Positions 6,538 to 47,370 of a DNA stretch of 64,000 bases are shown piece after piece. Each line of letters begins with the position of its first letter. The stretch's first letter is position 1. Origin of the DNA: Flavonifractor porci (GTDB taxonomy: Bacteria; Bacillota; Clostridia; Oscillospirales; Oscillospiraceae); NCBI RefSeq assembly GCF_037572415.1, contig NZ_JBBHLB010000005.1, positions 150,050 through 214,049 of the forward strand, given 5' to 3'. The notes under the pieces were generated by a model that worked only from the letters and a program-made list of their open reading frames with translations, made no database searches and had not been told where the DNA came from. A program made the translations under genes and the position numbers.

Positions 6538-6592
6538 CTGACAACCTGTCGCATTATCTTAATCCGACAACCTGTCATATGTCAACAGGGCG
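6538..6592. promoter_or_regulatory. direct and inverted repeats (GACAACCTGTC twice, TGTCAACAGG) in the TetR/efflux operon promoter region, a candidate TetR operator
   Basis: Repeated 11-mer seen at ~6539 and ~6567, immediately upstream of the TetR start. Confidence 0.3.
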
Positions 6593-6726
6593 GGAACAGA
6601 ATTCACAATTTGTTCCCAACCACTTCGCTGGATAGCATAACAGACCCGTCTCAAATCTTCCATAAAAAAAGGATGAAATTTTTCTAAAAAATCACAACCG
6701 ATGGCAGCCCTTCCATTTTTCATGCA

Positions 6727-6757
6727 AAAGGGGCGCTGCACAGCAGCGCCCCTTTGA
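6727..6757. terminator. intrinsic terminator hairpin AAGGGGCGCTG-CACAG-CAGCGCCCCTT downstream of ackA
   Basis: Perfect 11-bp stem flanked by A and T runs. Confidence 0.7.
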
Positions 6758-6775
6758 AAAGATGCTTTGTTTTTC

Positions 6776-15035: not shown

Positions 15036-15095
15036 TTATTTGATATGCAGTTCTTTTTCCACATCGTTCAGGTTGATGGTGAGCATCCGGCTGAT
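15036..15095 (-). repeat. displaced, diverged copy of the last ~57 nt of smc, including a TAA stop (encodes …ISRMLTINLNDVEKELHIK*)
   Basis: ~88% identical to 15258-15317, the true smc 3' end encoding …VSRMLTINLNDVEKELHIK*. It is separated from the true end by the 162-bp element. Confidence 0.75.
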
Positions 15096-15257
15096 CCCCC
15101 GCCCAGCCAAGGCTGGGCGGGGACCCCTTGATTTTACTCAAATCGCCGGAAATGAATCCCGGCGATTTCAAGGTTTTTCCCCAGGGCAAAACACTTGACG
15201 GCGCAAGCGCCGCCCCGCCTTCGGCGGGTGGGCGTCAGCCACCAACCCGTAAAGATA
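15096..15257 (-). repeat. copy A of a structured ~150-210 bp non-coding element family, inserted exactly at the smc stop codon
   Basis: Contains a GGGGACCCC motif preceded by a palindrome (CCCGCCCAGCC-AA-GGCTGGGCGGG), a core hairpin with an AATGAAT loop, and a GC hairpin (CGCCCCGCCTTCGGCGGGTGGGCG). It is homologous to the elements at 21860-22005, 42819-42984 and 47121-47332. Confidence 0.65.
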
Positions 15258-18200
15258 TCACTTAATGTGCAGTTCTTTCTCCACATCGTTCAGGTTGATA
15301 GTCAGCATCCGGCTGACGCCCTGCTCCTGCATGGTGACGCCATAGAGGACATCCGCTTCCTCCATGGTACCGCGGCGGTGGGTGATGACGATAAACTGAG
15401 TCTTGTCCGCCATCTGCCGCATATAGTGGGCAAAGCGCACCACGTTGGCGTCGTCCAGGGCGGCCTCGATCTCGTCCATCACTACAAAGGGAGTGGGCCG
15501 CACCTTCAGAATGGCAAAATAGAGGGCGATGGCCACGAAGGCCTTCTCGCCGCCGGACAGCAGGGAGAGCACCTTCAGCGCCTTGCCGGGGGGCTGCACC
15601 TTGATCTCGATGCCGCAGTTGAGGATATCATTGGGGTCCTCCAGCTCCAGAGTGGCCTTACCGCCCTGGAACAGCTCCGTAAAGGTCTGCTGGAAAGACT
15701 CGTTGAGCACGGCAAACTGCTTGGCAAAGATAGCGCGCATCTCCTCCGTGATATCGGCGATGATGCCCTCCAGCTCCTTTTTGGACTTCTGCACATCGTC
15801 CCGCTGGTCGGTGAGGTAGGTATAGCGCTCGTTGATACGCTGGAACTCGTCGATGGCGTCCAGGTTGATGTTGCCCAGAGAGGAAATGGACTTTTTCAGC
15901 TCTCCCACCCGGCGCTGGGCCTTGGGGACGCTCTCCAGCTCCACCCGCTGGGCCATGGCCGCCTGGTGGGACAGCTCGTAGGTCTCCCACAGCTTCTCCA
16001 GCAGGTTCTTCTCCTCCATGGCGGCGGCAGCCTTCTTCTGCTCCAGCACCGACACCTCCCGCTCCAGGTTGAGCAGGGCGCTGTTCTTGTCCCGGGCATC
16101 CTTGTCTGCCTGGTTGCGCTGGGCCTCCAGGGCCAGTTTCTCGTCGTTGATGCGGCTGATGGCGGCCTGGCGGTCCTGGTTTTCCAGTCGGATGTCCTGG
16201 AGCTGACGCTCCTTCTCCGCAATCTCCCGCTCCAGATCGGCGTTCTTCTCCTGGAACTGGGTAAGCATCCGCTCTCGCTCGGCCTTGTCGCCGGTCAGAT
16301 CCCGGCGCAGCTCTTCCAGTTCGGTCATGGACTTCCGGGCGGCCTGGGCCTCCGCCTCCAGGGCGGCCAGACGCATATTCAGTTCGGCAATGGCCTCGCC
16401 CAAAGCCGTAGCCTTCTCCTGGGCTTCGCTCTGGCCTCTGGCCTTACCCTCCGCCTCGGCCCGCAGGGCGGCGGCGGCTCCCTCCAGGGACTCCACCCGG
16501 GCGCGGGCGGCACGGGTATCCGCCTCGATCTGGGCAGAACGTGCCTGGAGCTGTTCCAGCTCACTCTTCTGGTCGGCACGCTGCTTCTTCAAATCGGCCA
16601 GCTGGGTATCCAAATGGCCCAGGCGCTCCTCCAGCTTAAGGATGTCGTCCTCATGGCGGCGCTGCTGGGCCTGAGCCGTCTCCATCTCGTAGGCGGCGGC
16701 GGTAGCCTCCCGCTTGGCCTCCTCCATGACGTGGGCCGCGTCGGCCAGCTGCTGGGCCACGCCGGTGCGCTGCTGAGCCAGCCGCTCCAACTCGTTGGCC
16801 CGGCTCAGAATGCCCGCGCTGCGGGACGCCGAACCGCCGGTCATGGAACCGCCGGGGTTGAGCACCTGGCCGTCCAGAGTGACGATCTTAAAGCGGTAGT
16901 TGTATTTGCGGGCCATGGCAATGGCCTTGTCCATATCCTCGGCCACCACGGTGCGGCCCAGCAGGTTGGAAAAGATCTTCTCATACCGGGGATCGAACTG
17001 GATGAGTTCGTTGCCCAGGCCTACAAAGCCGGGTTCCCTGCGCACGCCCTGATCCCGGAAGTCGGAGGGCCGCATGGAGGTCACGGGCAGGAAGGTGCTC
17101 CGGCCGCCGTCCCGGCGCTTCAGGTACTGAATGGCGGCCTTGCCGTCCTCCTCCCGCTCCACCACAATATGCTGCATGGCGCCCCCCAGGGCGATCTCGA
17201 TGGCTACCGTACAGGCGTCAGGCACATGGATGAGTCCGGCTACCGGGCCGTGGATGCCCCGAAGCTGGCCCTTCTTGGCCTCCCCCATCACCAGCTTTAC
17301 CGCTTTGGAGTAGCCCTCATACATCTTTTCCATCTCGGAGAGCATATGGATGCGGGAGTTCAGGGCGTTGTCCTCCATCTGGAGTTTGACGTGGCGCTCC
17401 TCCGCTTCCCTGGCCTTCCGCTGCCGGGTCTCCAGCCGCAGGGCGTAACCGCTGATGATGTTCTGTAAGCTGTCCCGGTCCTCCCTGGCCTGGTCCAGCT
17501 CCTGGGCGGCCTGACGGCGGGTCTCCTCCGCCTCATGGAGCCGCTCCTCACCGGAAGCCAGCTCCTGACGCATGGCCTCGTCCCGGTCCAACACCTCCTG
17601 GGCGGCAGCGGCCAGGGCGGAAATGAGGGCCTTGGCGTCGGCGGCGGAGGCGTTCTCCACCGCCTCCTTCCGGCGCAGGTCCTCCAGCTCCTGGGCAATG
17701 GCCCCGGCGGAGCGGCTGGCGGAGGCAGCCTCATTCTGGCGGTCAGCCAGCTGCTGCCGCAGGCCGGCGGTCTGGCCTTCCAGCTCCTCCAGCCGGGTCT
17801 TGCGCTCCCCGATCTGGGCGGCGATGGAGTCAGCCCGGCCCTCCTGCTGCTCCAGCTCCCGCTGGATGCGGTCCCGGTTCTCCAGGTTGTTCTGAATATT
17901 GGTTTTGAGGACGGCGATAGCGTTTTCCAGGCTGTTGGCATCGGCCTCCCGCTGCATCATTTGGAAGCGGACGCCCTCGGTCTCCACGTCCTTGTCCCGC
18001 ATCTGAGCGGAGAATGCCTCAGCGGCGGCGTACAGGTCCTCCACCTGCTGCTGGACCTCCCCCTTCTGACGGAGGGCATTCTCGTAGTCGGACAGGGTCT
18101 TGCGGGACCCGGAACGAATCTTCTCCAGCTGGTCCAGCCACAGGGAAATCTCCAGCCCACGCAGCTCGTCCCGCAGGATGAGGAACTTCCTGGCCTTCTC

Positions 18201-21789: not shown

Positions 21790-21859
21790 TCCACATCCAG
21801 TCCCGCCAGCGCTTCCAAGGCTCGCTTACTCAATTCAGCGTTCTTGTTCCGCTTGTTCC
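21790..21859 (-). repeat. displaced, diverged copy of the last ~70 nt of trmFO (encodes …NKRNKNAELSKRALEALAGLDVEGR*)
   Basis: ~85% identical to 22006-22078, the true end encoding …KGKRNKNAELSKRALEMLAGLDVE*. Most differences are synonymous. Confidence 0.75.
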
Positions 21860-22005
21860 CCACGGAAATCATATTTCCGTGGGAGCCCCGATCCTTAAAT
21901 CTGCTCGGGCGAAGTGAATTCGCCCGGCATCAAGATTTTGCTTCGCAAAATACTTGGCGCCGCACGGCGGCGGGTCGCTTTCGCTCCCGGGCAAGCGGAC
22001 GCGCC
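21860..22005 (-). repeat. copy B of the structured element family, inserted exactly at the trmFO stop codon
   Basis: Contains the palindrome CCCACGGAAAT-CAT-ATTTCCGTGGG, then GAGCCCC, a core hairpin CGGGCGAA-GTGAA-TTCGCCCG, an ATTTTGC-TTC-GCAAAAT hairpin, and a GC-rich proximal hairpin. Confidence 0.65.
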
Positions 22006-23310
22006 TTATTCTACATCCAGTCCCGCCAGCATTTCCAGAGCCCGCTTACTCAATTCGGCATTCTTATTCCGCTTGCCCTTGACCTTATAGCCCAGAGGCG
22101 GGATGATGCCGAAATTCACGTTCATGGGCTGGAAATCGGTAACGCTCTCATTGCTGATATACAGAGCCAGCGCGCCGGTGGCGGTCTCCTGAGGGAAATC
22201 CACCGGCGGCTTGCCGGTGAGCCGCCGGGCCAGCTCCACCGCCGCCAGGAAGCCGGAGGCGGTGGACTCCACATAGCCCTCCACGCCGGTGATCTGCCCG
22301 GCAAAGCAGATACGCGGGTCCTTCTTCACCCGGTAATACCGGTCCAGCAGCCGGGGAGAATCCAGATAGGTGTTGCGGTGCATGACGCCGTAGCGGACAA
22401 ACTCCGCGTTTTTCAGGGCGGGGATCATGGAAAACACCCGCTTCTGCTCCGGCCACTTCAGGTGGGTCTGGAAGCCCACCAGATTGTAGATGGTGCCGTC
22501 AGCGTTATCCCGCCGCAGCTGCACCACAGCGAAGGGCTCCTTGCCGGTCTTGGGGTCCCGCAGACCACGGGGCTTCAGTGGCCCGTAGCACAGGGTCTGC
22601 TTGCCCCGGCGGGCCATGACCTCCACCGGCATACAGCCCTCAAACACATTCTTGTCCTCAAAACCGTGGACCTCCGCCTCCTGGGCGGCACACAGCTCGG
22701 TCCAGAATGCGTCGTACTCCTCCTCGGTCATGGGGCAGTTGATGTAGTCCGGAGTGCCCTTGTCGTAGCGGGAGGCAAAGAAGGCGCTCTCCATGTCCAC
22801 GCTCTCAAAGGTGACCAGAGGGGCGGCGGCGTCAAAGAAGTTGAGGTAGTGGCTCTCCGGGAAGAAATCCTTAATGGCATCCGCCAGCACGTCGGAGGTC
22901 AGGGGCCCGGAGGCCACAATCACGTTGCCCTCTTCGGGAATCCGGGTGACTTCCTCCTCCACCACTGTGATGAGGGGATGATTGCGGATCTTCTCGGTGA
23001 TGGCCTGAGCAAAGCCGTGGCGGTCCACCGCCAGGGCGCCGCCGGCCTCCACCCTGTGCTCGTCGGCGCAGGACAGGATGAGGGAACCCATCCGCCGCAG
23101 CTCCTCCTTCAGCAGGCCCACCGCGTTCTCCAGCTGGTCGGAGCGCAGGGAGTTGGAGCACACCAGCTCGCCGAACCACTGGGTGTGGTGGGCGGGGGTC
23201 ATTTTGTGGGGCTTCATTTCCTTCAGGATCACGGGGATGCCCCGCCGGGCCAGCTGCCACGCAGCCTCACACCCGGCCAGACCCGCGCCGATCACGCGTA
23301 CAGGTTCCAT
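22006..23310 (-). CDS. trmFO: methylenetetrahydrofolate--tRNA-(uracil54-C5)-methyltransferase TrmFO (Gid)
   Basis: MEPVRVIGAGLAGCEAAWQLA… FAD-binding N-terminus and the TrmFO core. Confidence 0.9.
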   Translation of the reverse strand: MEPVRVIGAGLAGCEAAWQLARRGIPVILKEMKPHKMTPAHHTQWFGELVCSNSLRSDQLENAVGLLKEELRRMGSLILSCADEHRVEAGGALAVDRHGFAQAITEKIRNHPLITVVEEEVTRIPEEGNVIVASGPLTSDVLADAIKDFFPESHYLNFFDAAAPLVTFESVDMESAFFASRYDKGTPDYINCPMTEEEYDAFWTELCAAQEAEVHGFEDKNVFEGCMPVEVMARRGKQTLCYGPLKPRGLRDPKTGKEPFAVVQLRRDNADGTIYNLVGFQTHLKWPEQKRVFSMIPALKNAEFVRYGVMHRNTYLDSPRLLDRYYRVKKDPRICFAGQITGVEGYVESTASGFLAAVELARRLTGKPPVDFPQETATGALALYISNESVTDFQPMNVNFGIIPPLGYKVKGKRNKNAELSKRALEMLAGLDVE

Positions 23311-35600: not shown

Positions 35601-38600
35601 TCTCCGTCTTTGCCGGTGTTCAGATCCACGATGATCCACTCCACGCCCGGAGTCTGAGGCGCATCCACGCTGCCGGTCTCCTTGATGGCAGGACCCGCGC
35701 ACCACCGGTTGCTGGGATCGCCGTCCAGGGCCTTCCAGGACTGAGGATCGTCCGAAGATCCGGAAACACCAGATGCCTGATGGGCCTTATTCAGCGCCAG
35801 ATTACCGGCAAAAGGCTCCTGAGGGGTGGAACTGTCCCGCCGCACAGCGACCACGGCAGTCAGAGCAAAGCCACCGGGATTGGTGATGGTATCGCCCAGG
35901 ACATAGTTGCCCGTTACGGTGTATTCCTTGGCAGCGGTAGGATCATAATCTTCCCCGGACCAGACAACAGGAAGGGTAACCTCTTTGCCGTTGCTCAGGG
36001 TCACAGTACCCTGCGCAGGCAAGCCGGCCCGATCCAATTCGGTGCCAAAGGCCACTTCCACTTCGATTTCCGGATTGGGAGCGGTGTAAATGCTGGGCAG
36101 CGGGAGGGGTGCCTTACCGGCTTCGCCCTCGTCCAGACGTCCGTTGAGCAGGATCTCCGCAATGCTGACATTGCTGCCGGCCGCCCAGGCCACTTTAATC
36201 GCGGAGATATCGCCCAGCTGGGAAGTATCGCCTACCCAGACGGTATTGTCTGCCGTTCCAACAGTCTCCCAGTTATCGCCCACCTTCACGGTCACGCTGG
36301 CATTGGAGACAGAATTCTGAATCACACTGACCGAATCCAGATGGACCGGCTTCTTCAGAGTATAGACCAGCTCGCCGGCAGCACTGCTGTTAAAAGCGGT
36401 CAGCAGATTGCCGTCCATTGCGTTTTGTTCATTTGCGGCGCCGCTGGTAAAGGTTCCGGCAGAGGTGTCTACGGTAAATTCCCGAACGTTGAGCTTGCTG
36501 CTGGAATCTTCTGTCTGGCGCAGCCGCAGGTAGCGGGCACGAATGGCAAGATCAGACAGGGTGATATGAGTGGAATCTACCTCAGGAACCAGGGTAATCC
36601 ACTGGATTCCATCCTGAGAATACTCCAGAGTGGCGTTATGATAATAGTTGCTGTCCTCATCCTTTTCGCCCTGAAGGATAGAAACGCCGCGCACGGTCTT
36701 TTCGATGCCCAAATCCACGCCGTAATAGTCATTGGCCTGCTGCGCAACATCGTACTTGGCGGCGCTGCCGGCATTTCCATCCAGCATTGCGTTGGAAGCG
36801 GTGGCCTCCTGGCGGACCCCGCCGATCACCGCATAGAGGGTGGGCTCGGTATGAGATACCTGCGGGCTCAGCTCTTCAAAAATGCGGGTGGATACACCTT
36901 CCATCAGATCCGTAATGAACGGCTGCAGCCGCTTGGAGCCGCCATAAGTGTTAAGGCTCTTCTTTTCGGTATTGGCAGCATTGTACTGGGCCCAGGCCTC
37001 AGCCAGATTGTCGCTGTTGACCGCAACAGCCGCCTGAAGAGCGGGCTGGATCGCCTGAGCGACTTTTTCCAGATTGCTGAGCCAGGGATTCAATTCACCG
37101 ATCAGTTGAGCGCTGGTGCAGTGTTCCTTAAAATATGCGATCGCTTCCACAATGTGCTGGCATTCATCCCGCAGCTTCACAAAGTCCGGATCCTCAGCGG
37201 TCAGGGTCCCGTTTTTCGTCTTTTCCAGAACTGCCGCCATGGTGTCCTTCAGATAATCAGACTCAGGGAAGGGATTTCTGCCAGGGAAACGGCTGGGCAC
37301 GTTGGAACCAACTGCTGCGCCCACATTCCGGGCAATGGTGAGATAGGCGTCATACACCTCGGGCTGGAGGTACTTGAAGCAATCTTCCCAGATGTCCAGA
37401 TAATTCTCGTCATAGCTTTCATTGTTCCAGTTCCAGCACATCAGCTGGTAGATACCCACCTTACTGACCTGGGGCTTATTGCAGGGGTTTGAGATAATGC
37501 CCAGGTGATGTTTCAGTCCTTTTGCCCATTGCAGATAGGCCTGGCTGTCACCCAGGAAAATGCCCCGGCCACCGGTATGTTCGTTACAGGGATAGTTCAG
37601 CCAGGTTACGATGTCATGTCCGCTGCGATCATACGCATAGTCGTAATTCTTCTGCTCCACGGGAGAATTTACCGTAGCGCCCGTCCAGTAGATTGGAATA
37701 CGGGAGTCCAGATTTTTAAACGATGCCAGCTCCTCGCCGTTGTCTGTCTCCGCACGACCGACATTATAATGCTGCGGGCAGTACACAATGGTTGCACAAT
37801 CACCCTTTTTATCCACATAATCGGTCATGATCCGGTTCAGCAGATTTACCGCATCGGCATGGGTGCCGGAACCGAAATCGTCGTTCAGGATGTGGAATTG
37901 GCGCACACCAATCGCATAGAACTGGTCAAGCTTTTTGGTGAGCAGATCAAAGCGTCTGTTATACTCCGCATAGCCCGCTTCATTACTGGGATCGGTGCTT
38001 ACGCCGCCTTTAAAAAAGCTGCCCAGATGAACAGACCAGACAAATTCCACTTTGGTTTCTTTTCCGACTTCGACAAGCCGTTTAAAGTCCTTCATCTGAT
38101 CCTCTGGATAGAGTTTGTCCCAATCAGAAGTATGATACTTGTCCGTTTTGGACGCATAGACAAAGATGTTCATTTTGACATCCCGCCCCATGCGCATCAC
38201 GCTTTCCCGGTTTTCAACATCCCAGCCGCCATAGAAGCCTTCTATCACACCGCGGTACAGGTTGTTGGAATAGTCCTCGATCTCCACCGGCAGGAACTTC
38301 TGACCGGCAAAGGAGCTGAACATCATCTGCAGGGTGGCCAGACCGTAGTAAACACAGTCTGTATCCTTACCCACGATGGTAACCACTCCGTTGGCGTTGT
38401 TGGTGGTATCTGCCACCAACATATAGGGATCATACTTCCCCATACCGGTACTGTCGCTGTCGTCGAACAGGTCCGTACGAGCGGTGGGAACAGGGTCTGC
38501 AACAGTCTTGTCCTCGTCCCCGTAGACGCCCAACAGGATGTTGGTCTTCCCGGCCACCACCGCACTGGAGGTAGTCATGGTCATGTCATAATCGGCCAGG

Positions 38601-38893
38601 ATTTCTTCCAGAAAATCTTTGGTGTAGCTGTCGATGCCGCTCTCCACCACAACGTTGACTTCTTTGGTCATGGTGAAGGGTACTGCTCCGTCAGGATAGA
38701 CGACCGAATGGGGCACCGGATAAATTTCATAACGACCTTGGTCCTCTGAAAATCCGTTGACAAGACTATCTTCCACCATGCCCTCTTTGGGCGGCTGCAG
38801 CGCAAACGCAGGCGACACGGTGGTAGACAGCATGGTACCGGCCAACAGCAAGGCCAGTACCTGTTTGTTGCCTCTTGACTTCATCCTCTTCAC
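32609..38893 (-). CDS. giant (2094 aa) secreted, cell-wall-anchored glycoside hydrolase: GH84-like beta-N-acetylglucosaminidase/hyaluronidase-type catalytic domain, F5/8-type C (discoidin) and Ig-like/FN3 modules, and three C-terminal SLH domains
   Basis: Signal peptide MKRMKSRGNKQVLALLLAGTMLSTTVSPAFA. Catalytic segment YRGVIEGFYGGWDVENRESVMRMGRDVKMNIFVYASKTDKYH… is GH84-like. Repeated beta-sandwich modules follow, then three SLH repeats at the C-terminus (FTDVKADEWFYEAVKYV…, FTDVESGVWYTDAVNWAASKGIVKGY…). Confidence 0.7.
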   Translation of the reverse strand: MKRMKSRGNKQVLALLLAGTMLSTTVSPAFALQPPKEGMVEDSLVNGFSEDQGRYEIYPVPHSVVYPDGAVPFTMTKEVNVVVESGIDSYTKDFLEEILADYDMTMTTSSAVVAGKTNILLGVYGDEDKTVADPVPTARTDLFDDSDSTGMGKYDPYMLVADTTNNANGVVTIVGKDTDCVYYGLATLQMMFSSFAGQKFLPVEIEDYSNNLYRGVIEGFYGGWDVENRESVMRMGRDVKMNIFVYASKTDKYHTSDWDKLYPEDQMKDFKRLVEVGKETKVEFVWSVHLGSFFKGGVSTDPSNEAGYAEYNRRFDLLTKKLDQFYAIGVRQFHILNDDFGSGTHADAVNLLNRIMTDYVDKKGDCATIVYCPQHYNVGRAETDNGEELASFKNLDSRIPIYWTGATVNSPVEQKNYDYAYDRSGHDIVTWLNYPCNEHTGGRGIFLGDSQAYLQWAKGLKHHLGIISNPCNKPQVSKVGIYQLMCWNWNNESYDENYLDIWEDCFKYLQPEVYDAYLTIARNVGAAVGSNVPSRFPGRNPFPESDYLKDTMAAVLEKTKNGTLTAEDPDFVKLRDECQHIVEAIAYFKEHCTSAQLIGELNPWLSNLEKVAQAIQPALQAAVAVNSDNLAEAWAQYNAANTEKKSLNTYGGSKRLQPFITDLMEGVSTRIFEELSPQVSHTEPTLYAVIGGVRQEATASNAMLDGNAGSAAKYDVAQQANDYYGVDLGIEKTVRGVSILQGEKDEDSNYYHNATLEYSQDGIQWITLVPEVDSTHITLSDLAIRARYLRLRQTEDSSSKLNVREFTVDTSAGTFTSGAANEQNAMDGNLLTAFNSSAAGELVYTLKKPVHLDSVSVIQNSVSNASVTVKVGDNWETVGTADNTVWVGDTSQLGDISAIKVAWAAGSNVSIAEILLNGRLDEGEAGKAPLPLPSIYTAPNPEIEVEVAFGTELDRAGLPAQGTVTLSNGKEVTLPVVWSGEDYDPTAAKEYTVTGNYVLGDTITNPGGFALTAVVAVRRDSSTPQEPFAGNLALNKAHQASGVSGSSDDPQSWKALDGDPSNRWCAGPAIKETGSVDAPQTPGVEWIIVDLNTGKDGEDLSGTNELTDITLKCYTDKSWPTKYDIYVSDEPFTVQDGKVSGGTKAASASYDPTDQKGHDDQVTVLPEGTSGRYVCVVFNEINKYATGATGISVAELKINGTKTYSAGVGAEENLSLEHPVYASGMELSSGFEPSKSVDGDTGTRWSSNWVGPEVATDSNGAWIVIDLGEDVADVTGISMSYFNKTWSDEYWIQVAGSDYTPQDYSKENLYQTMNNKEALTGQNAKDANAWTTIATVTQSGTESGATHSVAKADFTKPIPAGTRYLRLYFEKGNSVIPRESTCIGLKEVTVTGTRFVAPAEPNVESVKPATATGVLGTAFGDLNLPETVAATLADGTSITLNVTWSDEGYNSNSAEQTLTGTLQCQDPVTNTDGVKAELHLTLTEEPKAVSAAVNPASVTAQQGTAFAELGLPTRAVVEMSDSTFVVCNVAWTESDYAAESEAAQTIHGTLDAVNDLGVTITVERPDTTAPAAPAGLAASGVTQTGATVTWTPSAEADLAGYRVYLNGASDPVADITASTYAFSGLTPNAEYTVTVTAYDRSGNESQPASCTFKTETAVMHHIEYILYNASVDPKTDSVMDGTDLTFKLVPAEGYILPETISVTMGGTALEQGKGYTYDAVTGNVTISNINAEVLIRADAIDPNAPKTVTVTFESNGGSSVPEQTVEVGSTVAEPEAPVREGYVFAGWYTDNIYTTQWNFSDPVNESMTLYAKWEDNGSGGVPSTSYAITVDETDNGTVTSSRTRASKGLTITLTVKSDEGYKLDTITVTDKNGSEVKLTDKGDGKYTFAMPASAVTVKAAFVKDDTPVDTDTPFTDVKADEWFYEAVKYVCDNKLMDGTSSTTFAPLMITNRAMIVTILWRLEGQPKAEATLSFTDVESGVWYTDAVNWAASKGIVKGYSDTVFAPNDTVTREQLATILYRYAESKGYDVSAKGDLTTFADGANTSSWAAEAMEWAVGSGLLSGKDGGKLDPTGTATRVEVATILMRFADSKAE

Positions 38894-39307
38894 ATCTCCT
38901 TTTTAAAAATCGGACCTACTTCCGGCAGGATTGCGTTTACGCCTGCGGATTGGTATCATATCCACCCCTTATTTCTCCCGCCTTTGGCACTCCGGGTCTT
39001 AAAATCTTCGTTCATAACCTCCTTCTTATTTTTCGACACAATAGTCTATATTTAGTTTATCACGGTACCCTACAGCCGCAAGTATGATTTTTTATCATAC
39101 TTTTACTCAGTACAGAACTTTTTTTCAAGGGTATCAAAACTTTAAAACTATTTTAATGAAATTGCTTTCCCATAGTTTTATAGTCGGCATCCATATTCTT
39201 ACCTTAATTGGCCAACCTCTCCCTTGCTTTATACAGCCAGCCTGCGCCTTTCCTTCTTTTCACGCATATCATGTTGCGGGAGCATCTCCCAGAAGGGGGT
39301 AACACGC

Positions 39308-40681
39308 ATGGGTGTTACAAATTCCAACAAACTCACCAATACCGACCACATTGCCTGCGGCGATTCACTGCGTGTAAGCCTGTCCCTGACAGCTGCACCA
39401 GATATTATTTCCAATCCCACTGATATTGTGCTGATTCTGGATCGCTCAGGCAGTATGGCCGGCACACCACTGACCAACATGAAACTGGGTGCAAAAACAT
39501 TTATTGATATCATCGATGAGGCCACCGATAATATGAACGATGGTCAAATCGGTTCCGGCAGCCGCATCGGCATTGTCAGCTTTTCCAGTACCGCTGTGGC
39601 GAACACCCAGCTCATCACCTCAGTGAACACGCTGAAAGACGCTGTGGACAGTCTGAGCGCCTCAGGCCTGACCAACCACGCAGACGCCTTTTCCAAGGCC
39701 ATCCAGCTTTTTGATCCTACCTCCGGCAATGCAAAGGTGATGATCATATTTACCGATGGCAATACTACGGCCGGTGCGCCTCCGGCACCTGTGGCCGCCG
39801 CCGCCCGGGCTGCGGGTATCACCATCTATTGCATCGGCCTGATAGGCTCCGGCGGTCTGGATATTGACGCATTAAACAACTGGGCCACCGACCCGGACGC
39901 TGCACATGTGGCGGTAACGCCCGATGCCGCCGATTTGGAAGACCTTTTCAAAGAACTGGCAGCCAACCTGACCAAGGCAGGCGCAACCAACATTGTAATC
40001 GACGAAATCGTCAACTCCGATTTTATGATCACAAGTATTCTATCTCCCACAAAGGGCTCCGCCGCCATGTTGGACGCACACACTCTGCGGTGGACCATTC
40101 CCGCATTGGGGGTGGATGCCAGCGAGAGCGCTGTGCTTGATTTTTTCATCCGGCATATCGGCCGGGAGCCGGGAACCAAACTGGTCAATCAGTCCATCAC
40201 TTATTCTGATACCGAGGGGAATGTGGTGTCTTTTCCCGCCCCCATGGTAACTGTGGAATGCGACATCGTGGTAACGCCGGAAGCTTGCCCCACGCCAGTA
40301 GATTTTACCGTGGAAGGTTGCACCGACTCGGTCCTGGTCGACCTGGGAGACACCTATTTGGAGTCTCAGGGCCGCATCATACAAACAGACGTCACCATCA
40401 AAAATGTATGTCCCGGAAAACGGATCGCGCTGGCCGCCATTCTCTCGGAAGTGGACGCCAACGGAACAGAATATCCACGGGGCATGAAGGCAATGACCAT
40501 CCCGGCCCACAACTTTCCCACTTGCCGGGACATACAGGTCCGGTGCATCAAATTTGTTGTACCCGAAGACTTGAATGTTTCCGGAACCTCATTTTGCAGT
40601 CCCCGCAGCTTCAAGGCTCGCTTTATCGCCAACAGCATTGATACGGATTACCACTGCTGCGAATCTACGATCACATTATGA
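39308..40681 (+). CDS. von Willebrand factor type A (vWA) domain protein with a Cys-rich C-terminal region
   Basis: MIDAS motif DIVLILDRSGSM…G(T). No signal peptide. Low GC (~48%) relative to the flanks. The start is at the internal MGVTNSN with an AAGGGGGT RBS. Confidence 0.6.
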   Translation: MGVTNSNKLTNTDHIACGDSLRVSLSLTAAPDIISNPTDIVLILDRSGSMAGTPLTNMKLGAKTFIDIIDEATDNMNDGQIGSGSRIGIVSFSSTAVANTQLITSVNTLKDAVDSLSASGLTNHADAFSKAIQLFDPTSGNAKVMIIFTDGNTTAGAPPAPVAAAARAAGITIYCIGLIGSGGLDIDALNNWATDPDAAHVAVTPDAADLEDLFKELAANLTKAGATNIVIDEIVNSDFMITSILSPTKGSAAMLDAHTLRWTIPALGVDASESAVLDFFIRHIGREPGTKLVNQSITYSDTEGNVVSFPAPMVTVECDIVVTPEACPTPVDFTVEGCTDSVLVDLGDTYLESQGRIIQTDVTIKNVCPGKRIALAAILSEVDANGTEYPRGMKAMTIPAHNFPTCRDIQVRCIKFVVPEDLNVSGTSFCSPRSFKARFIANSIDTDYHCCESTITL

Positions 40682-40789
40682 CCCAACTCCCACTGTTTTG
40701 TTTTCACAGCACAGGATCTCTGCTGCAAAACGTTGATCTGCTCTCTTCGCAGGCAATGTCCCCAGTGCAGCATACAAAATAAACAAAAC

Positions 40790-40846
40790 GCAGCTACCGC
40801 AAACAGGCAAGCGCCTGATTTCGCGGTAGCTGCTGTTTTTGCCCGA
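40790..40846 (+). terminator. intrinsic terminator GCAGCTACCGC…GCGGTAGCTGC followed by TGTTTTTG
   Basis: 11-bp stem plus a T run downstream of the vWA gene. Confidence 0.6.
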
Positions 40847-41044
40847 TAAAGGCGGCTGTAACGGCATGAGATAGGAGCTTCTCAAACGTGTGCGGCGGAC
40901 ACGTAAGGTACAGCGTACAAAGCAAATTTTCACGATACCCTATGCAGCCAGGATATTGTATTGACCGCAGGGCGCTATTAAGATTATTGTGTTGGATTAG
41001 CTTCCTAATTGCAGCAAAAACGGGCGGGTTTCCCCGCCCTTCAA

Positions 41045-41263
41045 TTAGCTTTCATCGTCTTTGATATATTTCATAATATCGCCCACTTCGCAGTCCAGAA
41101 TACGACAAAACACCTCTATGGTATGGGTACTGACACTTTCGTTGCGCTTCAACCTTGTAATCTGTGCCGGGCTGATATTGTATTTCTTTATGAGGGCATA
41201 TTGGGAAATCCCTTTTTCCCGCATGACATTCCATAAGTTGTCGTAAGAAATCATAACATTCAA
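41045..41263 (-). CDS. XRE-family HTH transcriptional regulator (72 aa)
   Basis: HTH (GISQYALIKKYNISPAQITRLKRNES). AT-rich, with a terminator hairpin GGGCGGG-GAAAC-CCCGCCC downstream. Confidence 0.6.
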   Translation of the reverse strand: MNVMISYDNLWNVMREKGISQYALIKKYNISPAQITRLKRNESVSTHTIEVFCRILDCEVGDIMKYIKDDES

Positions 41264-41353
41264 GCCTCGCTCTCTACTTGAATGTTAACCGAAAACGATG
41301 TACAATTAGATTAACCAATATCGGTTAATATATTTATGTAGGAGGAGACGGAA

Positions 41354-42352
41354 ATGAAAAAAATATTGTTGTTTGTTCTATCAGCGGCTCTCATATTATC
41401 TTTGGCAGCTTGCGGCGGGGACACAACCAGTGACTCCAACGTATCAGGCAGCAATGAAACCAATACGCCAAACAACAGTGGAACACCCGGCAATGATGCT
41501 GATAGCGTTCAAGAAGCAGAGGTACCCAACAACGGGGAGTGGGACGAAATCCTTTGCTCCGGGGACGGCTATCACTTGGTAAAAAAAGAGGTTGATTCCT
41601 ACGATGGCTACAAATTCACACTTGGTGTAGTGGATGATGAGGGCCAGTGGGTACAGGAAATGACCGACACCGGAACTTTTGTAGACGAAGTACGCTTCCG
41701 CGCCGAAGGCAGCAGTGAAACCCTGCGAGACAGTTCCTGCTATATGTATCTGGGAGAAGGCGTGTTTCTTGCTTCTCCAGGTGTGTCCGTATACACAAAG
41801 GACGAAGAACACCGGGTCGGTCCTTGGGAGAACAGCGTATCTTACAGCCCTACTGGACGGGCTGAGGTTGCAATCTGGGAATGCCTTCTTTGGAATGTAA
41901 AAACTAATATGCAGACAGAGATTGACGCATCCAAGATGTCCATGTTCCAGGACGGATACTTGCTGTTCTGCAAAGAGGACGAGTCCGGCAGCGGTACACT
42001 CAGTGCCATGAATACTAACGGCGAAATCACTGAATTCACCTGTAAGTTCTTGCCCAATAAGCCCGGCCACAATTTCCCCGTCTATTCAGAGGGATTGTTC
42101 TATGCCTGCACTGACAAGGGGTCTCGTCCCGGTTTTTTTGACATCTCGGGTAATATGGTCATTGACTTATCGTCGTATGATGTAGGCAGGATACCCTATT
42201 CCAATGAAATGGGAGTAAACGCCCCGTACTTTGAGAATGGGCAGGCTACTATTTTATTCGCCAACAATGCCGGGAGCGTGTTCCAGGCAACTATTGATAA
42301 AACAGGGGCTTTCGTGGGAGAACCTGAAAAAGTAGATGTTTCTGTTTATTAA
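41354..42352 (+). CDS. hypothetical lipoprotein (332 aa)
   Basis: Lipoprotein signal peptide with lipobox LSLAAC. Low GC (~48%). No recognisable domain. Confidence 0.6.
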   Translation: MKKILLFVLSAALILSLAACGGDTTSDSNVSGSNETNTPNNSGTPGNDADSVQEAEVPNNGEWDEILCSGDGYHLVKKEVDSYDGYKFTLGVVDDEGQWVQEMTDTGTFVDEVRFRAEGSSETLRDSSCYMYLGEGVFLASPGVSVYTKDEEHRVGPWENSVSYSPTGRAEVAIWECLLWNVKTNMQTEIDASKMSMFQDGYLLFCKEDESGSGTLSAMNTNGEITEFTCKFLPNKPGHNFPVYSEGLFYACTDKGSRPGFFDISGNMVIDLSSYDVGRIPYSNEMGVNAPYFENGQATILFANNAGSVFQATIDKTGAFVGEPEKVDVSVY

Positions 42353-42415
42353 GCACAAAAAGAGAGGGCGGTACACCATCAGTGCCGTCCTCTCTCATTT
42401 TGTATTCCATTGTTA

Positions 42416-42826
42416 TCAAGCGCTCTCCTGCTCCTTCTTCTCTTCCTGCTTCTTCTGGAAGCCAGCAAGATCAATCACCTTGGAAGCATTGGAACTAAAA
42501 TCGGGCTGCTCCTTGTACTTTGGGAACTGGGTCTCAAACCAATTCCGCACAAACTTGTAGGGGATGGGCTGCTCCAGGGAGCAGGTCTTGACCACCTCAG
42601 ACTGGGCCAACAGCTCACCAGCATTCTGAAACACGCCCATATACTTCTCCATGTTTGCGCAAGTCAGGTTCTTGTAGGTGCGTTTGCTGGCATTTTTCTT
42701 GATGGTCTTGGTCGCTATCTGAGTACTGGGGAAGTCCTGGCGGTAAGCTCTCCACTCTCTGTATTCAGGAGGGCCGAAGATACGGGTCTGCTTCTTGAAA
42801 GCCTTGCCGTGGTGGGCAATCCCCAT
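42416..42826 (-). CDS. hypothetical ORF whose first codons derive from the displaced rubrerythrin 3'-end copy; it may be real or spurious
   Basis: Starts MGIAHHGKAF…, corresponding to rubrerythrin …[15 protein letters not shown]. Lys/Glu-rich C-terminus. Low-GC region. Confidence 0.2.
   Translation of the reverse strand: MGIAHHGKAFKKQTRIFGPPEYREWRAYRQDFPSTQIATKTIKKNASKRTYKNLTCANMEKYMGVFQNAGELLAQSEVVKTCSLEQPIPYKFVRNWFETQFPKYKEQPDFSSNASKVIDLAGFQKKQEEKKEQESA
42770..42818 (-). repeat. displaced, degenerated copy of the rubrerythrin 3' end (stop lost, one codon deleted)
   Basis: GAAAGCCTTGCCGTGGTGGGC…TTCAAGAAGCAGACCCGTATCTTCGGCCCT aligns with rbr 42985-43040, GAAAGCCTTGCCGTGGCGGGC…TTCGAGGGCCTGCTGAAGCGTTACTTCGGCTAA. 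Confidence 0.6.
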
Positions 42827-42984
42827 GGGACAAATCCCATGGGGACCCCAATGATTTCATCTGCTCGGGCGGAGTGAATCCGCCCGGCTTCGAGGTTTCA
42901 GCTTCGCCAAAACCCTCGGTGACGAGGCCCGCCACGGCAAAAAAGATCCCGGTCCGTTGGACCGGGATCTTTTAGGTATTCAGA
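42819..42984 (-). repeat. copy D of the structured element family, inserted exactly at the rubrerythrin stop codon, with its own strong terminator
   Basis: CCCATGGG-ACAAAT-CCCATGGGG palindrome, then ACCCCAATGATTTCAT, core hairpin CGGGCGGA-GTGAA-TCCGCCCG, and the terminator AGATCCCGGTCC-GTTG-GACCGGGATCT with A/T flanks at 42944-42970. Confidence 0.7.
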
Positions 42985-43527
42985 TTAGCCGAAGTAACGC
43001 TTCAGCAGGCCCTCGAAAGCCTTGCCGTGGCGGGCCTCGTCGCGAGCCATCTCGTGGACGGTGTCGTGGATGGCGTCCAGGTTGTGCTCCTTGGCCAGCT
43101 TGGCCAGCTCGAACTTGCCGGCGGTAGCGCCGTTCTCGGCGTCCACACGCATCTCCAGGTTCTTCTTGGTGGAATCGGTCAGAACCTCACCCAGCAGCTC
43201 GGCAAACTTGGCGGCGTGCTCGGCCTCCTCCAGAGCGGCCTTCTCCCAGTACAGGCCGATCTCGGGGTAGCCCTCACGATGAGCCACACGGCTCATGGCC
43301 AGATACATACCGACCTCGGAGCACTCGCCCTCAAAGTTCATGCGCAGGCCCTGGATGATCTCCTCGGGAGCGCCCTTGGCAACACCGACAACGTGCTCAG
43401 CAGCCCAGGTACGATCGCCACCCTGGAGCACGAACTTCTCCTTGGGAGCCTTACAGATGGGGCAGAAATCAGGGGCGGAATCCCCCTCGTGAACATAACC
43501 GCAAACAGAGCAGACCCACTTTTTCAT
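42985..43527 (-). CDS. rbr: reverse rubrerythrin (N-terminal rubredoxin-like domain plus C-terminal ferritin-like diiron domain)
   Basis: [28 protein letters not shown] (CxxC…CxxC rubredoxin fold) followed by diiron ExxH motifs ([23 protein letters not shown]). Confidence 0.85.
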
Positions 43528-43590
43528 GTGATTTTCCTCCTAATTTAATGATTTATTTTATTCAATTTCGGGTTAGCTGGAAGTGCTAAT

Positions 43591-43611
43591 CAGTAATGAT
43601 TATCATTTCTG
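43591..43611. promoter_or_regulatory. Fur-family (PerR/Fur) box AATGATTATCATT, a perfect 6-1-6 palindrome, in the rubrerythrin promoter
   Basis: Matches the core of the classic Fur box GATAATGATAATCATTATC. Located ~70 nt upstream of the rbr start. Confidence 0.55.
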
Positions 43612-43683
43612 ATATTAAGATAGCACAACTTAACTCTGCCGTCAAGTGTTTTTTTCAAATTCCGAAAACTTTTTTATTTCACC

Positions 43684-43832
43684 TTACTTTTCATGTTTGC
43701 GGCGGTAACGGCGGTGTCCCAGCACCAGAATAAAAACGCCTGCCGCTGCCAGGATTCCGCCCAATACAATCTGGGCGATGATGGGACCATACATGATAGA
43801 TATCACACGATCTATACTACTACTATAAAAGC
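43684..43832 (-). CDS. small membrane peptide (49 aa), not in the ORF track because it is under 60 aa
   Basis: GGGGGATAAGGA RBS then ATG. Encodes MDLGFYSSSIDRVISIMYGPIIAQIVLGGILAAAGVFILVLGHRRYRRKHEK, one TM helix and a basic tail, immediately downstream of the XRE-TM regulator. Confidence 0.35.
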
Positions 43833-43854
43833 CGAGATCCATTTCCTTATCCCC

Positions 43855-44226
43855 CTATGGCAGACATTCGGGCAACTTCATAAACTCCCACAGGCCATTT
43901 ATGGTCAAAAGCTGCAGCAGCCCCCGTATCAACAGATAGCTCCCCACTGCCAGCGGTAAAATCCCCAGCAGATACCATCTGGGTTCTCTCCTCTCAGGTG
44001 CCGCCTCTGTGGGCAGGCCCGGATCAGGCCTCTCCCCTAACAGCAGCTGGTCTGTTGTGATCCCAAATAGTTTGGCCAAGGCCACGATCTTATCCAATTC
44101 CGGCTGGGCAGCGTCACCCTCCCACTTGCTCACCGCCTGGCGGGACACTCCCAGCAGTTCGGCCAACCCTTCCTGAGACAGGCCCGCGCGTTTGCGGTAA
44201 TTCAGAATCCGCTCTCCCAAGGTCAT
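43855..44226 (-). CDS. XRE-family HTH regulator with a C-terminal transmembrane segment
   Basis: HTH (AGLSQEGLAELLGVSRQAVSKWE) plus a C-terminal hydrophobic helix WYLLGILPLAVGSYLLIRGLL. Confidence 0.6.
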   Translation of the reverse strand: MTLGERILNYRKRAGLSQEGLAELLGVSRQAVSKWEGDAAQPELDKIVALAKLFGITTDQLLLGERPDPGLPTEAAPERREPRWYLLGILPLAVGSYLLIRGLLQLLTINGLWEFMKLPECLP

Positions 44227-44417
44227 CCTTGCTCGCCATCCTTTCTCCCGGCGTCACCGGACAGTTCCAGACTATCAAACGATCCGGTTTCATACCATAA
44301 AGTTTGGCTTGAACTTCCACAACCGCTGGTTGTCAAAAGGGTTTTCAAGCAAAATCATCATAACATAGCCTGCCCAGCGTATTCAAGCATCCCTTGGTAA
44401 AGATCCGGCATAACAGA

Positions 44418-44452
44418 AAACGGGCGCGCTGGGATATACAGCGCGCCCGTTT
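44418..44452. terminator. terminator hairpin AAAACGGGCGCGCTG-loop-CAGCGCGCCCGTTTT
   Basis: Perfect 15-bp stem with flanking A and T runs downstream of the 44475..45068 gene. Confidence 0.65.
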
Positions 44453-44474
44453 TGAGCGGTTTTTATCAGGCAAT

Positions 44475-45068
44475 TTATGTGTCCGCAAGTGCCTGGGCGG
44501 CAGCCTTGATTACAGCCACGCAGGCATCGATACCGATACGGCTGTTGACGCACAGATCATACTCCCGGCTCTGTCCCCAACGGCCGGTGGCAAAATAATT
44601 ATAATAGGAGGCTCTTGCCTTGTCCTGGCGGATAACATAGCTCTCCAGATTGTTCTCCTGTACACCGTACTCCTCCCGAGCCCGGCGGATCCGCTGATCC
44701 AGAGGTGCATTGACAAATACCTTCAGGCAGCGGGGGTGATCCCGAAGGATATAGTCGGCGCAGCGGCCCACAATGACACAGGATTCCCTGTCAGCGGCCT
44801 CCTTGATAACTTTAGCCTGCGCGATAAACACCTGATCGGGAACCGATGGCGTCTGTACGCTGGTATAGAGATCATAGAGAAAACTATTGGTGGGGCGCTG
44901 ATGCTCGGCATTGCGGATAAAGTGCTCGGAGAAGCCTGTCTTTTTTGCCACATCGGAGATCAGCTGTTTGTCGTAAAATGTGATGCCCATCTCTTCGGAC
45001 AACTGCTTGGCAATAAGCCGTCCGCCGGAACCGTACTCACGACCGATGGTAATGACGATGTGTTTCAT
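44475..45068 (-). CDS. cytidylate kinase-like family protein (P-loop NTPase, function unknown)
   Basis: MKHIVITIGREYGSGGRLIAKQL… P-loop. Paralogous N-terminus to the protein at 54692..55177. Confidence 0.6.
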   Translation of the reverse strand: MKHIVITIGREYGSGGRLIAKQLSEEMGITFYDKQLISDVAKKTGFSEHFIRNAEHQRPTNSFLYDLYTSVQTPSVPDQVFIAQAKVIKEAADRESCVIVGRCADYILRDHPRCLKVFVNAPLDQRIRRAREEYGVQENNLESYVIRQDKARASYYNYFATGRWGQSREYDLCVNSRIGIDACVAVIKAAAQALADT

Positions 45069-45190
45069 AAGAACACCTCCTATCCTAATTTAAGTATAAT
45101 GCTTTTTTCTCCTTCCGTCAAAGAGTTTTCATTTTCATATCTTATATTTATTATCCTATGTTAATATGCAAAATTTATTACGGATTTCGA

Positions 45191-45218
45191 TTGACTTTCC
45201 GCCAAACCTGAGTATAAT
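45191..45218 (+). promoter_or_regulatory. sigma-70-type promoter TTGACT-16 nt-TATAAT
   Basis: Consensus hexamers ~90 nt upstream of the 45306 start. Confidence 0.4.
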
Positions 45219-45305
45219 AGTTGCCATCTGGCCCATATGTCCAAAGGGTCTTTTCCCTCCGCAAGGAAACTGAAAAAGAGAGCACAAAAAGAAAGGAGTA
45301 TCCAT

Positions 45306-45509
45306 ATGTTTATTCTGGGTATCATTCTGATCATCGCCGGTATTGGCTGTGCCGGTTACGGTTTTATGCAGAACAACAGCTTGGAGGCCCAGTTCACCAG
45401 CATCATGAGCAGCGGTACCGCTAACCCCGGCACCATGTTTATCGTCATTGGCGTGATCCTGCTGGTAGTCGGTATCATCCTCTGTGTGGTCGGCAAAAAG
45501 AAGAATTAA
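45306..45509 (+). CDS. small membrane protein (67 aa, two TM helices)
   Basis: AAAGGAG RBS then MFILGIILIIAGIGCAGYGF…IVIGVILLVVGIILCVVGKKKN. Confidence 0.45.
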   Translation: MFILGIILIIAGIGCAGYGFMQNNSLEAQFTSIMSSGTANPGTMFIVIGVILLVVGIILCVVGKKKN

Positions 45510-47120
<1,611 letters not shown>

Positions 47121-47332
47121 GCAACGCCCCCTTATGCTGACTTTCCAAGGAGGGACGCGGCAGCGCCGCGTCCCTCCTTTTTCGTCGGCCACCGGGGCCC
47201 CATCAAAGATGGGGCGGCGCGCAAGCGCCGTACAAGCGTTTTACCGGCAGGCAAAACCTTAATGCCGGGCGGATTCATTCCGCCCGAGCAGCTCCAATCA
47301 TGGGGTCCCCAACCTGCCCCGCAGGTTGGGGC
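47121..47332 (+). repeat. copy C of the structured element family, inserted exactly after the gdhA stop, with its own intrinsic terminator
   Basis: Terminator GGAGGGACGCGGC-AGC-GCCGCGTCCCTCC plus TTTTT at 47149-47182. Core hairpin CCGGGCGGATTCATTCCGCCCG. CAATCATGGGGTCCCC followed by the palindrome AACCTGCCCCGCAGGTTGGGGC. This is the same orientation relative to the host gene as copies A, B and D. Confidence 0.7.
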
Positions 47333-47370
47333 TGGCCGACGCTATGATCTGGCAGGGCGTGTCCTACTAA
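47333..47370 (+). repeat. displaced, identical copy of the last 38 nt of gdhA including TAA (TGGCCGACGCTATGATCTGGCAGGGCGTGTCCTACTAA)
   Basis: Exact repeat of 47083-47120. It is followed by the ancestral gdhA terminator. Confidence 0.8.

Follow-up and report, generated by a model that had tools for sequence, protein, structure and literature searches.

A structured, non-coding repeat behind the rubrerythrin gene of Flavonifractor porci and its family of copies at gene ends in Oscillospiraceae

What separates the rubrerythrin gene of Flavonifractor porci from a displaced fragment of its own 3′ end, and how did it come to lie there? The question arises in a stretch of 64,000 nt (contig NZ_JBBHLB010000005.1, positions 150,050 to 214,049; hereafter the window), in which the gene, rbr, is followed by a short hairpin-rich element and then by a partial repeat of its last codons. 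A preliminary description, made from the letters alone, had read this as a family element that was inserted directly behind rbr, delivered a terminator and left the displaced gene end to decay into the start of a new open reading frame (ORF). Comparison with related loci (given L numbers below) shows that the rbr copy is a member of a high-copy, non-coding, structured repeat family of the Oscillospiraceae. Our overall account, which joins this family, the history of the rbr locus and a copy-in by way of a sense single-stranded, most likely RNA, intermediate, is one that we regard as probable rather than certain. The parts of the locus, from the gene outward, are the following:

42985..43527, minus strand: rubrerythrin gene rbr (180 aa; Pfam RUBY_RBDX 1.2e-16, Rubrerythrin 2e-11), host gene of the element copy
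43022..43041, minus strand: J, the target segment within rbr, GACGAGGCCCGCCACGGCAA on the gene strand (inverted repeat I1, also found by BLAST)
42974..42984, minus strand: 11-nt spacer from the rbr stop to the terminator, in relatives part of the duplicated host segment
42941..42973, minus strand: intrinsic terminator hairpin AAAAGATCCCGGTCC/GGACCGGGATCTTTT with A and T runs at its flanks (I2; present in the RNA fold)
42921..42940, minus strand: J′, the inverted copy of J at the gene-proximal element junction (I1)
42887..42920, minus strand: hairpin H2, CGAGGGTTTTGGC...GAAACCTCG (RNA fold)
42866..42886, minus strand: core hairpin H1, CGGGCGGA-GTGAA-TCCGCCCG, the family signature, conserved across copies
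42846..42865, minus strand: conserved single-stranded tail, GAGCAGATGAAATCATTGGGGT on the gene strand (family alignment)
42820..42845, minus strand: P, the terminal GC-rich palindrome (I4); the distal duplicate starts 0-4 nt past P
42807..42819, minus strand: remnant of the distal duplicate of the rbr 3′ end, GCCCACCACGG, with a 2-3 nt linker to P (D2, I3, alignment)

The layout bears out much of the preliminary description. A stretch of 166 bp (42819-42984) separates the rbr stop at 42985 from the duplicated segment, the terminator hairpin (42941-42973), the core hairpin (42866-42886) and the palindrome (42820-42845) are all present, and ATGAAATCATTGGGGTCCCC is found when the element is read on the gene strand. 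The core hairpin gives 5 matches in the window (≤3 mismatches, at 3 sites, vs 0 expected). The displaced duplicate of the rbr 3′ end beyond the inserted family element is likewise real, being a direct repeat that matches at 22 of 24 positions (42794-42817 vs 43012-43035). What had been overlooked is a 20-nt inverted repeat: in an inverted-repeat search J′ (42921-42940) proved to be the exact reverse complement, 20/20, of J (43022-43041) inside rbr, and J, to which it is complementary, straddles the inner edge of the duplication. Folded as RNA, the rbr region reaches -149.9 kcal/mol (z = -10.7 vs shuffles), with the 20-bp J/J′ stem dominating the predicted fold. In the rbr mRNA this predicted stem (42921-43041) would enclose the last 19 codons, the stop and the terminator hairpin.

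How widespread are such units? A core-pattern scan of one genome per species gave at least 115 loci with at least 132 copies, including the three copies in the window that fit the strict pattern; the family-wide counts below rest on the copies among the matches listed, and flanking repeats were scored in 124 analysable copies. The host organisms of the core-pattern matches listed are Flavonifractor, Pseudoflavonifractor, Intestinimonas, Lawsonibacter and related metagenome-assembled genomes (MAGs). A family profile (nhmmer) finds copies behind four genes of the window (an smc-like gene, trmFO, rbr and gdhA), with matches at 15087-15217 (-), 21848-21975 (-), 42812-42937 (-) and 47212-47340 (+), respectively. 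The three copies other than that at rbr are laid out thus:

15036..15316, minus strand: copy behind the smc-like gene (nhmmer E=1.2e-8), with proximal duplicate 15258-15316, J′ at about 15230-15244, element 15087-15217 and distal duplicate 15036-15094
21790..22075, minus strand: copy behind trmFO, with proximal duplicate 22010-22075, J′ 21989-21999, element 21848-21975 and distal duplicate 21790-21855
47083..47370, plus strand: copy behind gdhA, with proximal duplicate 47083-47120, imported terminator 47121-47182, J′ at about 47183-47193, element to about 47331 and distal duplicate 47333-47370, followed by the native terminator

The copy behind the smc-like gene has a diverged core (CGCCGGGATTCATTTCCGGCG), 59-bp duplications and an 11-nt J′; as the strict core pattern misses it, the family counts must be underestimates. 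The distal duplicate at trmFO (21790-21855) retains the original ...EGR* end together with the terminator.

Read in gene orientation, a unit consists of the host gene with J, the stop (with the gene's own terminator, if any), J′, optional GC hairpins, H2, H1, the tail, P and a second copy of the segment from J to the stop. The element proper measures about 105-170 nt and contains no ORF. The base of the H2 stem covaries across copies (CAAG/CTTG, CGAG/CTCG, CAGG/CCTG), and H1 has a covarying G-C/A-T pair. A direct repeat of the host gene 3′ end, 24-168 bp in length, flanks 81 of the 124 copies analysed. In these the distal repeat copy begins 38-55 nt past the core and 0-4 nt past P, 80 of the 81 proximal copies form the end of a long sense ORF, and for 78 of those 80 the distance from the repeat start to the stop is 25-127 nt. 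At least 33 distinct genes serve as hosts, mostly core housekeeping genes, among them those for GroEL, SecA, EF-G, UvrA, RNase III, PGI, Dtd and the Asn, Gly and Ala tRNA ligases. Sub-families in other Oscillospiraceae MAGs (L007, L010, L020, L027, L092, L106) and in L006, L024 and L113 keep the H1 core, with a different H2 or with a terminator-like hairpin in place of P; their copies show no recognisable flanking duplication, and no partner gene was found nearby. One further copy (L013) sits on a contig binned as Anaerovibrio (Negativicutes), probably through a binning error and not as a genuine copy outside the Oscillospiraceae. The whole window gave no match at the gathering score in Rfam 15, and searching two copies with E values up to 10 returned only noise. 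The core pattern has 0 matches in 2.9 million viral contigs, and we found no relevant described Oscillospiraceae repeat in the literature. The family, which could be matched to no described element, appears to be previously undescribed.

The junctions of these units are informative about their origin. J′ is present in every copy where it could be scored; it is 10-24 nt long, and its complementarity to the target begins 1-10 nt (mode 3-6) outside the repeat and extends about 4-30 nt into it. It starts 0-10 nt past the stop codon in 25 of 46 cases, and where at least 45 nt separate the stop and J′ (the rbr, gdhA and groEL groups) an intrinsic terminator lies in between, its U-tract abutting J′. 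The P junction is precise, whereas the J′ junction is ragged, with fillers of 0-19 nt and optional extra hairpins. The P stems differ in sequence yet stay paired, with 65 G:T against 7 A:C wobbles on the gene-sense strand, an excess which implies that the sense single strand is what folds. The orientation of the copies tracks the host gene rather than replication: the window has negative GC skew throughout, yet the gdhA copy, like gdhA itself, is inverted. In J and J′ of the first-unit rbr copies from 12 loci (11 species and one conspecific contig) we counted 0 compensated and 21 uncompensated changes, a count that omits 5 of 26 changes as a boundary artefact of the second unit in L117. This absence of compensatory change suggests that J′ is a scar and not a maintained pairing or a guide.

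In the hosts that contain a terminator (rbr, groEL and gdhA), the native 3′ end of the duplicated segment is already complementary to J over 5-9 nt. At rbr the native ...TTTTTTGCCGT end, as seen in L095, pairs with ACGGCAA in J (TTGCCGT/ACGGCAA), and J′ extends the complementarity 13 nt; this pattern, which is that of snap-back synthesis, recurs at groEL (L037, L088) and gdhA (L080). In all three hosts J′ continues a pre-existing complementarity to a few bases beyond the other edge of the repeat. The lengths of the duplications show no evident ribosome-footprint periodicity. A derivation of the P stem from the target was considered and set aside, since it yielded only weak 7-mer coincidences and P subtypes are common to unrelated loci.

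Did the element bring the rbr terminator with it, as had been proposed? The hairpin at 42941-42973 has a 15-bp stem of 100% complementarity with T's next to it on the gene strand; with the A:T pairs left open it reads GGGATC plus TTTTTTGC on that strand, in the form of an intrinsic (Rho-independent) terminator. A consensus terminator scanner misses it, as it counts the T's into the stem. In four species (L018, L076, L095, L115) this terminator is duplicated together with the rbr end, and in L095 its distal copy starts 9 nt past the stop of a convergent 393-aa gene, which marks it as the native bidirectional terminator of rbr. At other host genes the terminators at this position are unrelated or absent, so that no terminator belongs to the conserved mobile core. 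The claim that the element delivered a strong terminator here is contradicted by these comparisons: the rbr terminator belongs to the gene itself and was caught in the duplicated segment, the element having landed directly behind it.

The DNA beyond the element holds a second fusion, whose parts are:

42416..42826, minus strand: chimeric ORF, 136 aa, with its ATG in P, 9 codons from P, the linker and the rbr duplicate, and then codons ~18-151 of a conserved hypothetical gene
42794..42806, minus strand: 13-nt stretch common to rbr and the neighbour gene, CAAGGCTTTCGAG, now ...CAAG..., the deletion junction (alignment A2, L123 sequence)
42361..42395, either strand: bidirectional terminator hairpin common to the chimeric ORF and the convergent lipoprotein gene 41354..42352

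The chimeric ORF has 188 homologues, typically of 146-153 aa, all of which start MKNTYKIDFVNNT...KAFE..., with K-A-F and E-Y invariant. Its homology to them begins at K-A-F, the native N-terminal 16-17 residues being replaced by MGIAHHG from P and rbr; with the MKNTYKIDFVNNT-type N-terminus gone, it is not a full-length member of this family. The closest full-length relative, P0003 (151 aa), lies in L123, 485 nt downstream of an empty rbr site that retains the original terminator, and has its own ribosome-binding site (RBS). It reads ...GTCACCAAGGCTTTCGAGAAGCAGGCCCGTATCTTCGGTACTCCCGAATACAGAGAGTGG, and window positions 42740-42806 are near-identical to it from the KAFE codons on (the junction alignment uses the rows of the window and L123; the junction in L117 was read from the L117 sequence). 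The KAF codons fall in the stretch common to rbr and the neighbour gene. To the left of these 13 nt the window matches rbr (GCCCACCACGG, with P before it), to the right of them the neighbour, which indicates that a deletion at the shared 13 nt fused the rbr duplicate to about codon 18 of the neighbour. With the boundary so placed, only ~42794/42807-42817 derives from rbr; 42770-42793 is native 5′ sequence of the conserved neighbour gene, and the likeness to rbr past KAFE (RIFG/RYFG, GAATAC) belongs to the neighbour and has not come from rbr.

This bears on the earlier view that 42770-42818 is the old rbr end with one codon deleted and the stop lost, a view that survives for ~42794/42807-42817 and fails for 42770-42793, which has its counterpart as KAFEKQARIFGTPEYREW in full-length P0003 of L123. 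Nor does the degenerated piece supply the ATG of the ORF: the ATG (42824-42826) lies outside it, in the P stem, and is without a good RBS. A history in which the element brought the terminator and the rbr end decayed by point mutation and codon deletion into an ORF start would find some basis in a 31-nt similarity of 71% (42761-42791 vs 42976-43006, D1) and a 24-nt similarity of 92% (D2). Yet the stretch agrees much more closely with the 5′ region native to the downstream gene, its K-A-F and E-Y residues are fixed in the neighbour's protein family, and the terminator travels with the host segment; we hold such a history to be very improbable.

Comparison of the loci shows instead a history in four steps. 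An ancestor gained the element just past the T-tract of the rbr terminator, with duplication of ~100-110 bp from J to the terminator, and the unit was then tandemly amplified or contracted via recombination between the duplicates. In the lineage of the window the distal rbr duplicate next recombined with the following gene at the shared 13 nt. Lost in this deletion were the remainder of the duplicate, whatever terminator and intergenic DNA stood between (~420 nt in L123, whose neighbour gene lies behind an element-free rbr), and the neighbour's promoter, RBS and first 16-17 codons. The product is the in-frame chimeric ORF, whose sole upstream ATG is in P. The chimeric junction is also present in the conspecific L117; the two copies show 17 synonymous vs 22 non-synonymous codon differences and no frameshift (rough dN/dS ~0.4), so that the shortened gene may remain in use. 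Only fragments of the element and of the ORF are left in L118, L120 and L121.

Is the family still moving? Several polymorphisms suggest that it is, or recently was, mobile. The gdhA site is occupied in the window and in L116, and is empty in the conspecific L117 (99.6% identity) and in Flavonifractor sp. AGMB03687 (L076); in the empty alleles the gene runs directly into the terminator that follows the distal repeat of the window. The element is found at rbr in 11 other species, and the site is empty in L122 and L123. Many of the duplications are perfect (e.g. 56/56, 52/52, 71/71). Tandem arrays of whole units occur at ~12 loci, the conspecific L117 having two units at rbr, and the second J′ of that array still holds 6 nt that lie outside the repeat, which shows unequal recombination and not re-insertion to be its source. 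The arrays comprise 2-3 units (gene end plus element) with periods of 195-378 bp (L117 at 6543-7000, L047, L012, L008, L025, L034, L064, L070, L082, L087, L109, L112), and in L117 a gene caller began a 183-aa ORF inside the second unit.

The extent of the duplication further distinguishes two modes of spread. In a primary-insertion type the repeat reaches J′, as at rbr in L018, L076, L095 and L115, where it spans ~100-110 bp including the spacer and the terminator. In a secondary type the stop codon is the exact end of the repeat, and a terminator foreign to the lineage follows the proximal copy while the native one follows the distal copy; gdhA in the window is of this type, as is rbr in L005, L032 and L057. 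This second pattern is what would be predicted from recombination of an incoming occupied allele with the right crossover inside the duplicated coding sequence. The gdhA insert of the window, 250 bp with the foreign terminator placed before the native one, may thus be taken as evidence that whole units pass between lineages by homologous recombination. In this way a unit can deliver a terminator, as one did at gdhA in the window but not at rbr. The C-terminus of host proteins is also rewritten in places: TrmFO changes from ...DVEGR* to ...DVE*, RNase H in L015 reads through J′ to end in ...KYRQGP*, and a SerC-like protein (L012/L112 vs L030) changes from DKNN* to ERAN* or DKAN*.

How could such a unit be made in the first place? 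We infer that a copy-in with template switching, by way of a sense single-stranded and probably RNA intermediate, is the likeliest route. Element RNA co-transcribed with the host gene would serve as the intermediate, and a precise join at its P end would be made as in target-primed synthesis. Closure of the opposite end would come from a polymerase template switch or from snap-back on a long 3′ overhang; this step would write J′ and set the length of the duplication, and in the case of snap-back the synthesis would then switch template into the element. Once established, the unit would pass from strain to strain and from species to species by homologous recombination within the duplicated coding sequence. 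Snap-back synthesis and microhomology joining are in vitro activities of bacterial group II and group II-like reverse transcriptases (RTs) (bioRxiv 10.1101/2022.03.14.484287).

Several observations pull the other way. Among all ORFs of at least 150 aa in 127 loci, which reach to about 4 kb from the copies, and in the window no RT motifs were found, and the ORFs near copies without P or flanking repeat included no recognisable transposase or mobile-element gene on inspection, with no search by hidden Markov models. Microhomology at the J′ junction is not general, with overlaps from -72 to +20 nt and many copies with 1-19 nt of filler. Rare copies (L093, L094) duplicate a gene 5′ end, with start codon and RBS, in antisense, so that the target is not strictly the 3′ end. 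The statistics on H1 across copies are biased, since the search pattern itself fixed the core. Distal terminators and partial J′ remnants could in part be relics of collapsed tandem arrays and not primary duplications, and the bias towards gene 3′ ends and the sense orientation could in part reflect selection against insertions that part promoters from genes.

A more specific form of the copy-in reading, which we put forward only tentatively, would make the family a bacterial retroposon resembling the short interspersed nuclear elements (SINEs) of eukaryotes: a ~110-nt structured RNA, borne as the 3′ tail of abundant housekeeping mRNAs, would be copied back by an RT of the host or of an intron, through target priming, snap-back and template switching, at the transcript-end regions of other strongly expressed genes, duplicating their last codons and leaving J′. 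With the retroposition of SINEs and long interspersed nuclear elements (LINEs) the family shares a non-autonomous structured RNA-like unit, a precise 3′ junction, a variable 5′ junction with fillers and microhomology, and a target duplication of variable length. Unlike them it has no poly-A or A-rich tail, no internal promoter or partner RT was identified, and its duplications are longer than the usual 7-20 bp. To our knowledge no SINE-like retroposon has been described in bacteria. Class C (IIC) group II introns also insert in sense just downstream of intrinsic terminator stem-loops, and their RTs template-switch and snap back; group II introns are, however, ribozymes of at least 400-600 nt with domains V/VI and without a long duplication, in contrast to elements of 105-170 nt that gave nothing in Rfam at gathering or permissive settings and have no RT-motif ORF nearby. 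Short inverted copies of a nearby flank, sometimes seeded by microhomology, further recall the templated insertions of the polymerase-theta/G2L4 type, but those are a repair signature and not a mobile element, whereas J′ recurs at one end of a specific repeat. A diversity-generating retroelement was rejected, as the 361 mismatches among 6702 aligned positions have the spectrum of ordinary transitions, without a bias to A, and no RT was found.

Could a DNA-based or an inherited structure account for the same pattern? Small, non-coding, hairpin-rich units at gene ends are well known in REP/BIME/REPIN, ERIC, Correia/NEMIS, RUP and BOX repeats and in classical miniature inverted-repeat transposable elements (MITEs). 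Such interspersed repeats are present in dozens to hundreds of copies per genome, are co-transcribed, and can supply or adjoin terminators. They have terminal inverted repeats (TIRs) or REP palindromes and a short fixed duplication or none, in contrast to our family, whose aligned copies have no TIRs and in which 24-168 bp gene-end duplications are combined with an inverted scar copied from the target, sense orientation and two unlike junctions, the one precise and the other ragged. A conventional MITE moved by a DDE transposase of the IS1634/IS1549 type, with J′ as a by-product of gap repair, is nevertheless worth weighing, since such enzymes are the only known source of comparably long and variable duplications; the direct repeats of IS1634 and IS1549 span 8-514 bp, by a mechanism that is not known (PMC2266710), and the repeats of our family are likewise long and variable. 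These IS4-related insertion sequences are, however, autonomous DDE elements of 1.5-2 kb with inverted ends; the consensus of our family has none (left ACCRAGCG..., right ...CCCATGGGG), and this absence together with the asymmetric junctions argues against a transposase of that type. The gene-sense orientation, the position at stop codons or terminator T-tracts, the confinement of G:T wobbles to the sense strand and the lack of a recognised transposase among the ORFs inspected near P-less copies all point the same way, and we know of no report of an inverted target scar or of a preference for stop codons or terminators in IS1634 or IS1549. On this evidence movement by a DDE transposase is unlikely.

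The regular placement of J′, centred on the insertion point (~5 nt outside, ~10 nt inside) and 5′ of a conserved three-hairpin scaffold, invites the thought that it has a function, be it as a guide beside a hairpin scaffold for insertion or homing, or as a cis-antisense that wraps the stop codon and terminator in a long stem. The dominance of the 20-bp stem in the predicted rbr mRNA fold and the frequency of arrays at the same site could be cited for this; but the length of J′ is not fixed, J and J′ drift independently at rbr, the target site stays intact in the occupied allele, so that the logic of a homing nuclease fails, and each of at least 33 host genes would need a newly programmed guide. 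We judge a functional J′ to be decidedly unlikely. The presence of the element at rbr in 11 other species, with variable DNA alongside, could also be explained by a vertically inherited 3′ untranslated region or terminator structure of rbr, or by the att scars left when an integrase-driven island was deleted. Integrative elements that reconstitute the 3′ end of the gene they enter (attL/attR at tRNA, tmRNA and protein genes) do leave that gene intact between two copies of its end, of which the distal one decays. Yet they have an integrase and one fixed att core, while here the same core lies behind unrelated genes with at least 33 different duplicated sequences, each locus having its own, no att core is common to the loci, the inserts are ~0.1-0.2 kb without a gene, no integrase was found, viral contigs hold no match, and empty alleles exist. 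We give an inherited or att-derived origin hardly any credence.

If the family moves by copy-in as proposed, it would represent a mode of bacterial mobile DNA without a known close precedent, one that targets gene ends without loss of the gene, in which the duplication and J′ together form a readable record of the insertion chemistry and later spread relies on homologous recombination within duplicated coding sequence. The family reshapes the 3′ ends of core genes, with new C-termini in TrmFO, RNase H and the SerC-like protein, and exchanges terminators between lineages, as at gdhA; it also builds tandem arrays, and its short homologies seed deletions and chimeric ORFs, as at rbr. In gut metagenomes, presence/absence and array-length polymorphisms offer markers with which to tell strains of Flavonifractor and Pseudoflavonifractor apart. 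Short-read assemblies will break at the repeats, and gene callers will be misled, as in the 183-aa call in L117.

There remains the low-GC DNA on the distal side of the element, which had been taken as an islet whose border with the core genome the element marks. At 0.491, the GC content of 38894-42830 is indeed below that of the window (0.575), but on the opposite side of rbr (43528-45600) it is just as low, 0.492. The genes of the islet comprise the chimeric ORF and those for a lipoprotein, a helix-turn-helix protein and a VWA protein; L116, L117 and L119 have them, whereas L118 and L120 have other genes in their place. Homology with the rbr loci of 11 other species ends at 42794, where strain-variable DNA starts. 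The proposed boundary therefore holds only loosely: the transition coincides with the deletion junction (42794-42806), and the comparison of related rbr loci that had been suggested finds an element whose presence varies (empty in L122 and L123) and an islet that varies among conspecific contigs independently of it. Thus rbr adjoins variable DNA, and the element itself does not set the boundary, though its duplicate gave the homology for the deletion that formed it. On the far side of the islet, window positions 32609-38893 encode a 2094-aa secreted protein with GH20b/NAGidase (GH84-like), F5/8 type C, fn3 and Flg_new domains and a C-terminal SLH region, which is called with lengths of 2072, 2010 and 1863 aa in conspecific contigs.

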